Positions 36,623-39,600 of a DNA stretch of 64,000 nt are shown here, piece by piece. How positions within the stretch are numbered: the stretch's first letter is position 1; each line of letters opens with the position of its first letter. Made by a program: the position numbers. This DNA is from Phormidesmis sp. (GTDB taxonomy: Bacteria; Cyanobacteriota; Cyanobacteriia; Leptolyngbyales; Leptolyngbyaceae): NCBI GenBank assembly GCA_965248535.1, contig CBDFJR010000005.1, positions 896,001 through 960,000 on the forward strand, read 5' to 3'.

Positions 36623-39600
36623 TTAGCAGTTAATTCTTCCTCAGTTAGCTTCAGGATAAGTTTCCTCTTTACGTATGACTTTAGCAAAACGTCCTGAAGT
36701 CCGCTCAAACAGAACGTCAAATTCACTATTTGGCATCCTCAAATCAATCGGAACTTCTTGAACAGGAAGTACTTCTTGACCGCCATCGTCCGCCAGTCCA
36801 ATACCAGCACAGAGAATTACCGTAATTTCTCCGTCTCGCAAACAGCCCAGAACTCTTGCTGGATAACGCCAGTATTTAGACATTTTCGGCAGCCCAAAAT
36901 ACTTGAAACTTACAAGCAGCTTCTAAACCACTAGCACAACCCGTAAACGAAGCAGGCTAACGCATTGTTGTGCGGCGGCAGATAAGCTTGGACTCTCACC
37001 GATAAGCTCTGTTCCGTCCGCACCAACGCATTGTGTACGCCCAGCATGGGTGTGAACTAATGGGGTGAAAGTCCCCTGTCGGAGAACCAACGTCCAAATG
37101 ATCCCAAAAGATCCGAGTGACGACAACGACTAGCTTAAGGTAAGGGCGTTTCCGCGAGGAAGGGTCTGAAGGAAGCCAGCGGCAAATCTGCGAGCTGACG
37201 GACAGAAACGTCATAGAAGGCTGAGATTCCTGTGGCAAGTGAGCACAACATCATGAAGCCTTTTGGTTCAGGGAACACAGTAAATGACGCAGTTGTGCAG
37301 AGACAGTTCACGTTCTTATCTGGGGAGATCTGCTCAAAGGGCGGTCTGAGGGTCTACGGGAGTCTGATTGAGGTCTAGCGGGAAACGGCTAGGGAGCCAC
37401 GGAACCCTAAGGACATTCAGGCAGCGTGAGTCATGGCAACAGGACTCATGATTGAGCAGAAGTCAGCAGAGGTCATAGTAGCCAAACACTCACCGTAATG
37501 GGTGAGACAGGGTGAAGGGCTGAACCTTAGAAAGCAGGGAGGAGTTGCAAAGCTCGACTGGGCGATGAACCCGAACGGGGGAGCTATTTTGTCGGCGCTT
37601 AACTGCACAACCAGCCCTGGATATTCAGTTCTATTGAACTGGCTTGTCTAAAACTTTTCTGGGGACGCGCCCCGTGCGGAGCCGCACGCGGGGTGCCGTG
37701 GGGACTGGGGGAGAAAATCCCCTGGTTACCCGATTGGGCTGCGCCGCTACATGACGCTGACTGGATAAGCACGGACTGCTGCATCTACCGTCGCAATGGT
37801 CAAGCCGTTTTGTAATGCTTGGCAGATTAGCATCCTGTCAAATGGATCACGATGTAATGGCGGCAGTTTAGCCAGTTGAAGCACACTATTTTCATTAAGG
37901 TCAAGACTGGCAATCTGATGAAGATTGCGCTGTTTGGGCAAATACGTTTCGGGATGCTCCGGCAAAGGTAGCTTGCCCAACTGATATTTGACAATCGCTT
38001 CCCAGACTGAAATTGCGCTTAGATAGACCTCGTTGTCTGGATCGCGAATGGCATCTCGAACATCTGGTAACAACTGGGTATCCCCACTGATGAACCACAA
38101 GAAGATATGTGTATCCAGCAGAATTCTCATTTGCCCTCAAATGCACGGAGAAGATCTTCCGGCAAAGGAGCATCGAAATTATCTGGCACGGTAAACGCTC
38201 CTGCACACAAACCGAATGGTCGCAGCTGCTTACCGCTTGATGAGATCGGTCTTAATTCGGCGATCGCTTTATCTGCTTGAACAATCACAATTGTTTGACC
38301 TGCCTCCACTTGGCGCAGATACTTTGAAGGATCGCGCTGAATTTCATCAACTGTCACACTTAGCATAAAAAGCCTCAGTATAAGCTCAAGGGATAATACT
38401 CTGCTTGATTCAATTGTATATGATGAGTCGTATGCTCCCAGCTAGGATGCGTCTTGAATCCCAACTTCTGATAAAACTCGGCGGCGGCTGGGGTATCGGT
38501 TCGCAACGTCAATAGTTGGTAATGCTGCTTGGCTACGTGAATAAGCTGAGTGACCAGCAAACGTCCCACTCCACGCTTCCGCCAAACTGCCTCAACATAC
38601 AAGTGTCGCAATCTACCAACTTTAGAATCATTCAAATATGGATCTTGATTCAGCCCACCGATTCCAACTATCGCACCGTGTACCGAAGCTGTAAGTAGGA
38701 TTTCACCAGACCGATCAAAGCAATTTAAACCACTACGGTACTCTCGAATCAGTCTTTCAACGAACCAAAACCCCTGGGATAAACTTTCCTCAGCGAGATG
38801 ATGAATTGATTTTGAGTCAAGCTCTGAAATGTGAGCGATCACAATCTGTTGCATGAGCCTTGAGAGAATATTGCAAGATTCGATCTTAGCTTTGAATCCC
38901 GACAAGTAAAACTGAAAGACAATCACAGCCAAAAATTCAAGCAGCCCAACGACCCCGTTCACCCACCGCTAGTAAACTATCGGATTTACCAACCAACTTC
39001 ATTCGGTCGGTGTGCAACGGGATTGTTATGCGGTACTTCATGTTGCTGATTTAATGTTATCTATTCCAGAATCGGGATGATGAAAGCCACTTGTATCTAA
39101 TGCTGGAATAAGAGTGTAGCCATTATCGTTAAGTATTCCCTTTGCACGTGAAGGCTGAATATATCCTTTGCCATTCATAAAAGTGAAACCATGACAGTTG
39201 TATTCTGGAGTAAGAAGTTCAACTTGCCGAGGTTTCATATTAGGAGGAAAGGTCATCTTTAGATAGGCTTCTGTTCTCTCTTTCTCACCAGGTTCAGCCC
39301 TAAGCCCACTTTTCTGAATAGCAGTTGACCACGCTACAGCATTACCATTTGTTTCATCAAGAGTCCCATCCTGCTTTACTGCGGCATCTGTAAAATAAGC
39401 ATCAACACAGATTATCGTCACACAATATCTCCCACTTCTCAATAGATTACTCCTACTACCATCTTTACGCTTTGCACGGTGTACAGTCCATGATTTTCCA
39501 TAGATACTGTAGTTTGGGTGATGAAGATATAGTCCTTGAGCGCCCCACTTACTCTTAATTTGAGCGACAGTGCCATCTGGATGAACGCCTGTGATGACAC

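Follow-up and report, generated by a model that had tools for sequence, protein, structure and literature searches.

Group IIC-attC introns are known from class 1 and chromosomal integrons (S.ma.I2 and others; Centron and Roy, Quiroga, Leon and Roy), where, in the accounts cited here, they are inserted at the R'' TTGT/T sequence of the attC bottom strand, in the orientation opposite to that of the cassettes, parting the gene from its attC (PMC7923331, PMC3001079, PMC8876359). Their intron-encoded protein (IEP) is of the class C type, without an endonuclease domain, and occasional insertions behind other hairpins occur. The introns of Thermosynechococcus elongatus are chloroplast-like IIB elements that home into sequence-specific sites. 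They include ORF-less forms present as near-identical multiple copies, accompanied by an ORF-bearing relative with an IEP that may serve them in trans (PMC4424553, PMC8919778). Clostridium tetani likewise has an ORF-less group II intron whose ribozyme is conserved, C.te.I1; it is described as a single, splicing-only element within a gene, in a genome that lacks any related IEP (PMC4424553). Among DNA transposons, the MITE-like non-autonomous elements are also internally deleted, keep their cis parts, and need an autonomous relative, which they outnumber.

The element described here lies in a window of 64,000 nt from Phormidesmis sp. (contig CBDFJR010000005.1, positions 896,001 to 960,000). It shares orientation, target and the separation of gene from attC with the known IIC-attC introns, and the IEP of its ORF-bearing partner likewise lacks an endonuclease domain, but it has no IEP gene of its own, measures 700 nt rather than about 1.95 kb, is found in filamentous cyanobacteria and reaches many copies per genome (eight here). 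Like the T. elongatus introns it is cyanobacterial, near-identical in its copies and related to an ORF-bearing intron, whereas it belongs to class C, targets a DNA structure (attC) and is common in its ORF-less form to several genera and families rather than to one genome. Unlike C.te.I1, it occurs in several copies, which lie antisense between genes, and a related IEP is present. It outnumbers its ORF-bearing relative by 8 to 1, as a MITE might, but would be RNA-mediated, with a catalytic RNA of its own in place of terminal inverted repeats. A full-text literature search, with key subscription-journal papers and the Zimmerly database outside its reach, returned no description of ORF-less IIC-attC introns. 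The kind itself (IIC-attC) is already known; new here are the ORF-less, non-autonomous derivative, its family-wide spread, the selection on its structure and a second burst of copies.

The ORF-less intron and its attC target sites

The boundaries of the intron in the window are fixed, because orthologues of the empty site show an uninterrupted attC. The intron lies in an integrase-less array in which every cassette gene is on the opposite strand. The relevant features are listed below; attC sites were located with a model (R1) built in this analysis from seven intact sites.

34832..34931, + strand: intact attC of the same array, bottom strand on + (R1 match C5:930832-930931)
36023..36119, + strand: intact attC with TTGTT at the target place (R1 match C5:932023-932119, 63 bits)
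36948..37034, + strand: 5' part of the split attC (bottom strand), comprising the R' box (..GGCTAACG), L' arm, loop, L'' arm and first half of R'' (R1 match C5:932948-933045, 37.1 bits, E 7e-6)
37031-37034, + strand: IBS1, TTGT, the end of the 5' part of the split attC
37035..37734, + strand: 700-nt intron of the group IIC-attC type without an ORF, 5' GTACG to CCCGAT 3' (Rfam, eight copies, empty-site orthologues)
37735..37741, + strand: rest of the R'' box, with IBS3 = T37735 (sequence; orthologous intact sites)
37747..38130, - strand: PIN-domain toxin gene of the cassette owning the split attC (Pfam PF01850, E 6.5e-12)
38127..38366, - strand: antitoxin gene of that cassette, Phd/YefM-like (Pfam PF02604 at E 1e-4, short of the gathering score)
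38937..39036, + strand: intact attC with TTGTT at the target place (R1 match C5:934937-935036)
41184..41280, + strand: intact attC (R1 match C5:937184-937280)

No RT-like ORF was found in 37035..37734: only ORFs of 40-67 aa start inside, one 80-aa ORF overlaps the 5' part, and the RVT_1 profile had no match anywhere in the window. A blastn search of the genome with the intron (window 37035-37734) as query gave 10 matches, and eight copies of the ORF-less intron are present in total. Six are identical over 700/700 nt, namely C2:156856(+), C2:1133221(-), C2:1136164(-), C5:44914(-), C5:793639(+) and C5:933035(+), the last being the copy in the window. The two others are C2:609290-609979 (98.6% identity) and C5:1939398-1940095 (84.9% identity, 102 mismatches and 4 gap openings); a 130-nt intron fragment was matched at C2:378132-378261. 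The 5' end of the copy at C2:609289 is damaged and its attC decayed, so not all copies can be active. The junctions read ..TTGT[GTACG...CCCGAT]T.., and those of the six identical copies are base-exact at TTGT^T, with flanks mutually unrelated beyond the attC consensus.

R1 identified 44 attC sites in the genome, eight of which are split, all at the same point; intact sites read ..GTTGTTATGC at this place, and TTGTT is retained in 28 of the 36 unoccupied sites. Matches to the model adjoin the 5' end of seven of the eight ORF-less copies and of the RT-bearing copy, C2:609289 being the exception. The window intron sits between the end of the PIN gene and its attC, and the rejoined R'' box, read on the gene strand as GCCCA^AC, fits RYYYAAC. 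The orthologous PIN-Phd cassette of four other genomes (G007, G096, G069 and G024) has an uninterrupted attC, ..GCATTGT|TGGGCTG.., corresponding to the window sequence minus exactly the 700 nt. Within this genome, one type of attC plus flank is found in three states: unoccupied at C2:2140695, holding the ORF-less intron at C2:1133910 and holding the ORF-bearing one at C2:1672928. Wherever the intron inserts, it comes to lie between a cassette gene and its attC, and that attC would probably be disabled for the integron integrase.

The genome-wide survey's note had reported a group II intron without an ORF that has eight copies, of which six are identical, with insertion at TTGT^T of an attC and antisense to the cassette genes. 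The Rfam matches, the lack of an RT-like ORF, the genome search, the junctions, the attC model and the gene strands all reproduced this. Its statement that seven of the eight copies split an attC, with C2:609289 as the exception, held with an independently built attC model, and its claim that removal of the intron restores the attC is matched by the uninterrupted site in the four genomes. It had named the insertion box R', which is wrong: the box is R'', next to the cassette gene.

These sites bear on whether the copies could have spread at the DNA level, through gene conversion from one attC site to another, through homologous recombination or through cassette shuffling by the integrase. Conversion might start from the attC sites, which are short and dispersed repeats, the genome has two integron integrase genes, and the attC-plus-flank unit beside C2:1133221 has paralogues at C2:1675016 and C2:2140603. 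Nevertheless, the eight sites have different flanks, and gene conversion therefore cannot explain a first arrival; the six identical copies have unrelated flanks and base-exact junctions, movement of a cassette would take the gene and its attC along with the intron, and neither the 85% copy at C5:1939398 nor the 79% RT-bearing copy has been homogenised. Across the junction table, TTGT precedes the intron in 41 of 54 cases and the final GT in 52 of 54; the one intron in which EBS1, the intron sequence complementary to IBS1, reads ACCA sits behind TGGT, the change in EBS1 being matched by a change in IBS1. Two ORF-less copies from other genomes (L032 and L033) lie behind non-attC hairpins, one of them terminator-like, as occasionally seen for known IIC-attC introns, and such positions are explained by retrohoming but not by recombination between attC sites. 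We consider DNA-level spread very unlikely.

Ribozyme structure, class and selection

Inside the element, Rfam models group-II-D1D4-3 and D1D4-1 matched with 127.8 and 63.7 bits. A consensus structure was obtained with RNAalifold from 16 distinct ORF-less introns and mapped onto the window copy, giving the following predicted domains.

37040..37324, + strand: domain 1 (RNAalifold consensus, pair counts)
37245..37249, + strand: EBS1, ACAAC, in hairpin loop GCACAACA (37243-37250), complementary to 5'-exon IBS1 (G)TTGT
37325..37464, + strand: domain 2 (RNAalifold, pair counts; helix 22 has compensatory changes in 8 of 9 pairs)
37481..37513, + strand: domain 3 (D1D4-1 model, RNAalifold)
37525..37664, + strand: domain 4 without ORF (alignment with the RT-bearing copy and among the 16 ORF-less introns)
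37667..37696, + strand: domain 5, a hairpin of 30 nt whose 3' strand has a 2-nt bulge, with CGC at the catalytic-triad position
37700..37731, + strand: domain 6; its branch point is an unpaired A (37728) at a distance of 7 nt from the 3' splice site

On these models, window 37035-37734 is a complete six-domain group II ribozyme without an ORF. Group II introns typically begin with GUGYG and end with AY; the termini here are GUACG, a one-base variant shared with the IIC-attC intron of a class 1 integron, and ..CCCGAU. Over the 16 introns, 98.0% of the cells of the consensus structure are paired, and compensatory changes were found in 63 of 206 pairs, against a mean of 33.0 in shuffled alignments (0/500 shuffles reached 63) and 12-18 when the partners were slid. 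Helix 36 of domain 5 (12 pairs, 99.5% of cells paired) has two pairs with compensatory changes and helix 37 of domain 6 has five in 13 pairs, with an invariant branch A; the EBS1 loop is unpaired in both the Rfam and RNAalifold structures and invariant in 14 of the 16 introns. Judging from this covariation and conservation, the structure of the intron RNA is under selection, including D5, D6 and EBS1.

The 140-nt domain 4 keeps a Shine-Dalgarno-like GGAGGAG (37538-37544), the former IEP start ATG (37565-37567) and roughly 95 nt from the beginning of the lost RT ORF, with nearly invariant sequence in the inner helices (27 and 29-31); this core is conserved in all 16 ORF-less introns. In the group II introns that have been studied, the D4 region with the Shine-Dalgarno sequence, start codon and early ORF is a high-affinity binding site for the IEP, and by analogy the remnant is presumed to bind an IEP supplied in trans. 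A micro-ORF of 28 codons running from the retained ATG in the window copy was considered as a coding sequence and rejected, as indels among the copies break its frame.

The intron is of class IIC, within the lineage that targets attC and is known from class 1 integrons. In bacterial class C introns, CGC replaces AGC at the D5 catalytic triad; D5 begins with G-CGC-CCC.. in all 16 introns, alignment columns 705-707 being invariantly C, G and C. Class C introns target a DNA stem-loop followed by a short IBS1 (3-5 nt) and IBS3, and have no IBS2-EBS2 pairing; of these features, the stem-loop and a short EBS1-IBS1 pairing were observed here. The protein criterion was judged on the resident ORF-bearing relative alone, the ORF-less intron having no protein: this relative encodes RVT_1 and GIIM domains, matches TIGR04416 and has no endonuclease domain, and the best solved relatives of its IEP are the IIC proteins GsI-IIC RT (331 bits) and 7uim (261 bits), as against 82 bits for LtrA and 74 for 6me0. 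On plasmids, the best relative of this IEP is from Candidatus Methylocalor (68%), followed by ltrA genes at 53% identity. One of the latter, from a Serratia plasmid, was inspected and lies antisense between class 1 integron cassettes, its intron being located between blaIMP-26 and qacEdelta1. This Serratia marcescens intron has the same 5' GTACGCCCAGCATGGG.. start, ..ACCCGAT end and TTGT^T junction as the ORF-less intron, to which it is 71% identical over positions 1-300, 80% over 415-511 and 78% over 634-700. The resident IEP is 53% identical to the integron-borne IEP and, by eye, about as close to GsI-IIC RT, a non-attC IIC protein, so identity alone does not decide the placement of the IEP in the attC lineage.

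The ORF-less intron might instead have been kept for a benefit to the host or the integron, by locking useful cassettes in place or providing an antisense RNA or a promoter, so that its spread was selected rather than selfish. The architecture has persisted in no fewer than 11 of the 90 genomes of the family and also outside it, split cassettes include toxin-antitoxin pairs, and published IIC-attC introns are described, in the source cited, as carrying outward promoters that drive the next cassette (PMC3001079). In contrast, a consensus scan of 36500-38300 detected no sigma-70-like promoter in or just upstream of the window intron in either orientation; it gave one promoter-like site outside the intron and no terminators, which is no more than in shuffled sequences and uninformative either way. 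Selection on the ribozyme itself (D5, D6 and EBS1) fits a mobile element better than a passive spacer, and occupancy is patchy (8/44, with TTGTT in 28/36 free sites). A role of this kind seems to us highly improbable as the cause of the spread.

The ORF-bearing partner and the distribution of the element

A single ORF-bearing intron is present in the genome, spanning C2:1673018-1675015 (1998 nt). It is 79.3% identical to the ORF-less intron over the alignable 5' 447 nt (D1-D3), and the two differ in D5 and D6; recognition of the ORF-less RNA by the resident IEP is thus plausible but unproven. Only two RVT_1 genes were found, one being this IEP and the other retron-like. The assembly shows a broken IEP frame. 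In contigs from three public runs (X1-X3), which may include the sample behind the assembly and are not independent strains, 17 nt stand where the assembly has 88 nt, an imperfect duplicate of 71 nt being absent, and the joined frame comprises 444 codons with a single terminal stop. The split RT gene is therefore probably an assembly artefact and, with the frame open in these contigs, a source of RT in trans apparently exists in the genome. Apparent empty alleles at this intron (a joint skipping it exactly in X1; loose ends, L001 3015, in X2 and X3) were rejected as polymorphism, because the flank differences appear, by eye, to fit a paralogue (position 3046), an unoccupied one being located at C2:2140695.

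The same ORF-less architecture was found in at least 11 of 90 Leptolyngbyaceae genomes and in cyanobacteria of other families. Five of the seven other genomes of the genus have matches at E<=0.001, that in G007 being 86% identical over intron positions 1-662. In G010, which belongs to another genus, there are at least nine full-length copies plus fragments, and nine of these copies differ by 0-4 of 698 nt and occupy nine different attC sites, constituting a second, independent burst of near-identical copies. In the tree of D1-D3 (33 rows), 11 ORF-less rows form one clade (87/95), five others branch from an open polytomy with ORF-bearing introns, and L004 and L005 have long branches; a single clade of all ORF-less introns was not resolved in this tree. 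A single origin is nevertheless suggested by the shared D4 remnant and junction, although D4 may alternatively have been exchanged by recombination.

With these results, two points of the survey's note were borne out, namely that the genome has two RVT_1 genes, one of them a retron RT, and, at the level of probability, that the split RT ORF is an assembly error. Two of its figures changed: the identity of the RT-bearing copy, given as about 84%, is 79% over the alignable 447 nt, and the genus relatives hold more than the four fragments it had counted.

Retrohoming may have been driven by something other than the resident cognate IEP: a non-cognate RT (another IEP or one of retron type), an IEP from a plasmid or phage, or the ribozyme alone, which would reverse-splice into attC hairpins in single-stranded form while host enzymes finish the copy. 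The ORF-less copies of other genomes that have no intact cognate IEP gene in the assembly count against a role of the resident IEP. In G010, with its nine near-identical copies, an insertion of about 8 kb interrupts the only close IEP gene, which has an in-frame TGA as well, and in G014 there are two or three in-frame TGA codons. With the resident IEP-type query, the assemblies of G097 and G100 gave IEP matches of at most 35% identity and that of G088 none at E<=1e-20, and all three have full-length ORF-less copies. The resident intron RNA is only 79% identical to the ORF-less one, and a preprint reports, in the part cited, protein-free self-integration by a group II ribozyme (10.1101/2024.08.31.610620). 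Conversely, this genome has an apparently intact cognate-type IEP, and retention of the SD/ATG/D4 core by each of the 16 ORF-less introns speaks for an element that still depends on an IEP of the lineage; the bursts in G010 may predate a recent breakage of the IEP gene, and repeated intron genes can be missed in draft genomes, here of 170-730 contigs. We regard a driver other than the resident IEP as unlikely, and it is distinctly unlikely that the element is a long-lived, horizontally spreading retroelement that proliferates without a working cognate IEP, by means of non-cognate RTs or ribozyme chemistry and host enzymes.

Proposed mode of spread and its significance

We consider it likely that the element is a non-autonomous IIC-attC intron that lost its ORF by a deletion in D4 and spread by retrohoming with the resident IEP acting in trans. 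The ancestor would have been an intron of about 1.9-2.0 kb, from which an internal D4 deletion removed nearly all of the RT/maturase (IEP) gene, while D1-D6 stayed whole and the ribosome-binding site was kept together with the start codon and some 95 nt at the beginning of the ORF. The RNA would be transcribed from the strand antisense to the cassettes, against which counts the negative result of the promoter scan in and just upstream of the window intron, and an IEP supplied in trans, with C2:1673018-1675015 as its likely source, would bind it and assist splicing. The ribonucleoprotein would then reverse-splice into the folded, single-stranded attC bottom strand, reading the target through the stem-loop, IBS1 (TTGT, with EBS1 ACAA) and IBS3 (T). 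Nascent DNA at the replication fork may prime cDNA synthesis, because the IEP has no endonuclease domain. Mobility is supported by the six identical copies in six unrelated flanks, the empty orthologous or paralogous sites and the nine-copy set of G010.

The element offers a natural system for determining the minimal RNA that a class C IEP needs in trans and the way in which DNA hairpins such as attC are chosen as targets, and a compact 700-nt ribozyme that targets structure is a candidate gene-targeting tool. The ORF-less architecture has burst at least twice, to 6-9 near-identical copies. In this genome 18% of the attC sites are split, and the system also lends itself to asking how this affects the integron, whose cassettes may be locked in place.

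Intron copies and interrupted attC sites

The 700-nt ORF-less intron starts with GTACG, ends with CCCGAT and contains matches to the Rfam group II models D1D4-3 (127.8 bits) and D1D4-1 (63.7 bits). A blastn search of the genome (5.03 Mb, five contigs) with window 37035-37734 gave 10 matches, and six of the copies were identical at 700/700 positions. This reproduced the eight ORF-less copies, six of them identical, of the genome-wide survey's note, whereas the copy bearing a reverse transcriptase (RT), described there as about 84% identical, matched at 79.3% over its first 447 nt.

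Intron copies in the genome
Window 37035-37734, + strand: ORF-less intron
C2:609290: near-identical ORF-less copy (98.6%, blastn)
C5:1939398: divergent ORF-less copy (84.9%, blastn)
C2:1673018-1675015: RT-bearing intron, 1998 nt, in an attC site in the same way as the ORF-less copies
C2:378132-378261, - strand: 130-nt fragment, a D3 to D4 remnant of the ORF-less type (88%), both ends cut

The 130-nt remnant is about 870 nt away from an intact attC (C2:377160). The flanks of the eight ORF-less copies are unrelated, except for an upstream attC-like inverted repeat ending in ..TTGT and a downstream T, mostly within TATGC, TAGCC or TGGGC.

Seven uninterrupted sites, found by pattern and aligned, were used as the seed of an attC model; RNAalifold folds them into a hairpin of 21 pairs, in which the 3' arm has unpaired bases and seven pairs carry compensatory changes. 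The covariance model gave 51 genome matches at E≤1, leaving 44 sites after the removal of five opposite-strand duplicates and two weak matches (E 0.035 and 0.22). An intron interrupts eight of the 44, always at the same point (seven ORF-less copies and the RT copy), and in this genome scan no attC was detected at the C2:609289 copy, the same exception as in the survey. TTGTT is present at the target point in 28 of the 36 free sites. In the genome-wide site table, the L'' arm is of the CCGC type in all eight occupied sites (..TCCGCTCC, ..TCCGCTGC, ..TCCGCACC, ..CCCGCTCC), and none of the roughly nine sites with a ..TCGGTGTGCA.. arm is occupied, though most have TTGTT. This pattern suggests that targeting may depend on the sequence or shape of the attC stem as well as on IBS1. 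Three paralogous attC-plus-flank units, with flanks 84-88% identical, offer a natural comparison of target use.

Paralogous attC-plus-flank units
C2:2140695-2140794: empty
C2:1133910-1134009: holding an ORF-less intron
C2:1672928-1673028: holding the ORF-bearing intron

The window array has five attC sites and no integrase, with every bottom strand on + and the cassette genes (chorismate mutase, DUF5615, BrnT, PIN with a Phd-like antitoxin, GNAT) all on -, so the intron is indeed antisense to them. Both integron integrase genes of the genome lie on C2 and exceed the TIGR02249 cut-off; three ORF-less copies adjoin them, and the remaining copies belong to arrays lacking an integrase or to single sites. 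The interrupted box adjoins a cassette gene and reads GCCCA^AC on the gene strand, and is therefore R'', not R' as originally proposed.

The PIN-Phd cassette (window 37747-38366) has matches of 71-86% identity in 28 of the 89 other genomes of the family; together with its attC, it is a mobile cassette widely shared in the family. Five orthologues were inspected. In four (from the compared genomes G007, G096, G069 and G024), the attC is uninterrupted (..GCATTGT^TGGGCTG..) and corresponds exactly to the window sequence minus 700 nt, which fixes the intron boundaries and bears out the claim that intron removal restores the attC. The fifth (locus L103) has a different cassette junction, the R' box of another attC directly preceding the cassette.

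Affiliation and RNA structure

The protein pieces of the RT copy match TIGR04416, RVT_1 and GIIM; an endonuclease domain is absent from these profile matches. Their best solved relatives are group IIC (GsI-IIC RT, 331 bits; 7uim, 261 bits), versus 82 bits for LtrA and 74 bits for 6me0. The top plasmid match (68%) is on a Candidatus Methylocalor plasmid and the next are ltrA genes (53%); the one inspected is on a Serratia plasmid, within a class 1 integron, where it is flanked by blaIMP-26 and qacEdelta1 and has antisense orientation. The Serratia intron shares with ours the 5' start, the ..ACCCGAT end and the TTGT^T junction, and is 71-80% identical to the ORF-less intron over three RNA segments. 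Passages in two reports (PMC3001079, PMC7923331) describe group IIC-attC introns as inserting into the attC bottom strand, at R'' and TTGT/T (IBS1/IBS3), against cassette transcription. Judged from target, RNA homology and partner protein sequence, rather than from the intron-encoded protein (IEP) phylogeny that formally defines the lineage, the ORF-less intron is a member of the IIC-attC lineage.

An alignment of 16 different ORF-less introns has 98.0% of its cells paired. Compensatory changes were found at 63 of 206 pairs, against 33.0 +/- 3.3 in shuffles (0/500 reached the observed value), and fell to 12-18 with sliding partners. D5 consists of 12 pairs with a 2-nt bulge, and the CGC at its triad place never varies; in D6 an unpaired A, likewise invariant, lies 7 nt from the intron end; and the inner D4 helices near the Shine-Dalgarno sequence and ATG are almost unvarying in sequence. 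Fourteen of the 16 introns have the EBS1 loop GCACAACA unchanged; the copy with EBS1 ACCA sits behind TGGT, the sole such EBS1/IBS1 pair, in the metagenome-assembled genome (MAG) Rhizobium sp. Q54. Across 54 tabulated junctions, TTGT occurs in 41 and a GT ending in 52.

Spread of the ORF-less architecture

Aligned against the RT copy, the ORF-less intron matches over D1-D3, next over GGAGGAG (Shine-Dalgarno-like) and the start codon, and then over about 95 nt of ORF; from there the alignment skips to the sequence directly before D5. Elsewhere, this architecture measures 691-743 nt. Within the GTDB family, 11 of 90 genomes have it, counting this one, and among 16 further families that were sampled, one does (G035). 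In the species-representative collection, an ORF-less-spacing pattern identified 19 loci, spread over 16 genomes whose titles name Leptolyngbyaceae, Oculatella, Stenomitos, Phormidesmis, Leptolyngbya, Pantanalinema, Coleofasciculaceae, Microcoleus, Thermosynechococcaceae and, for one MAG, Rhizobium. The intron of the Q54 MAG (L062, L064) is 91% identical to the window copy and lies behind an attC-like site; its intron contigs are probably mis-binned cyanobacterial DNA.

Of 22 distinct ORF-less loci in other genomes, 19 have an attC model hit adjoining the start of the intron, and two of the other three sit behind different hairpins, one terminator-like, in agreement with the published behaviour of the IIC-attC lineage.

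ORF-less copies behind non-attC hairpins
L033/L053: G062
L032/L052: Stenomitos frigidus

One of these hairpins has a GC-rich stem followed by a T run, resembling an intrinsic terminator. The evidence best supports retrohoming, with mobilisation in trans, into the folded bottom strands of attC sites; EBS1-IBS1 plus IBS3 would recognise the target and cDNA synthesis would be primed at the fork. An insertion would probably leave the attC it interrupts non-functional. The exactness of the junctions, the lack of relation between flanks, the use of non-attC hairpins and the joint change of EBS1 and IBS1 are hard to reconcile with spread by DNA-level processes.

G010, from a different genus, has nine ORF-less copies (0-4 differences per 698 nt) in nine different attC sites; they represent a second burst, independent of the first, and their variant differs from the window intron by 13%. 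In a D1-D3 tree, the six-copy variant and the 85% copy each cluster with introns of other genomes, not together, which suggests two arrivals in this genome. In G007 (L008/L055) and G100 (L031/L063), genomes of different genera, the ORF-less intron has a shared, unrelated sequence (..CAGTGAATCACGGTAA..) in place of D6 beyond position 662, perhaps a variant 3' end or else an insertion nested in the intron. In a Thermosynechococcaceae MAG (L059, ~141-175), an intron 3' end (..CCTGTTACCCGA) is directly followed by another intron's 5' end (TTACGCCC..), and the two appear to be in head-to-tail tandem.

Source of the reverse transcriptase

A genome-wide profile search found only two RVT_1 genes, as previously noted, the second being retron-like.

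C2:2381100-2382221 (L070 1309-2430): retron-like RT gene, matching Ec67 and TIR-RT family models below cut-offs

As assembled, the IEP gene contains an imperfect tandem duplicate of 71 nt (C2:1673869-1673939; L001 1869-1939) that interrupts its reading frame. Contigs of three public runs match almost letter for letter, except that L001 1852-1939 is replaced by 17 letters and the duplicate is gone; joined accordingly, the frame has 444 codons and one terminal stop. Because the runs may include the source sample, the discrepancy speaks for an assembly error, as the survey had suspected, rather than a second strain. The duplicate is thus a likely artefact, calling for caution over other "split" genes in this assembly, and the open frame of the duplicate-free contigs indicates that an intact class C IEP is probably present. 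Just downstream of the RT intron's cassette, about 1.26 kb (C2:1675652-1676915; L001 3652-4915) is skipped in the contigs of the three runs and also occurs on a separate contig whose depth is ~6-7x that of its neighbours; the segment resembles a multi-copy insertion sequence carrying a transposase-like ORF.

Intact IEPs (447-457 aa) are encoded by related ORF-bearing introns in G018, G093 and G016. In the sole close IEP gene of G010, some 8 kb, including a 405-aa ORF on the opposite strand (recombinase-like, at a guess from its sequence), separate ..GVP from CVIDRV.., and the 3' part of the gene has an in-frame TGA.

L029 5639-5974 and L071 ~1460-2480 (G010:C1): split IEP gene

The G014 IEP gene contains stops, no IEP match exceeded 35% identity in G097 and G100, and none was found at E<=1e-20 in G088. 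These five genomes count against a simple picture, and mobilisation without a cognate IEP is kept as an unlikely alternative because G010 combines nine near-identical copies with a broken close IEP gene. A role in serving the host is possible; it finds no support here, a promoter scan of the window intron having found no promoter-like sites.

ORF-less bacterial introns relying on a relative's IEP are known and have been termed rare and short-lived (PMC4424553). Full-text literature searches, covering main texts, found no ORF-less IIC-attC intron, and no IIC-attC intron described from cyanobacterial integrons. The IIC-attC kind is already known; what is new is the ORF-less form and its spread.
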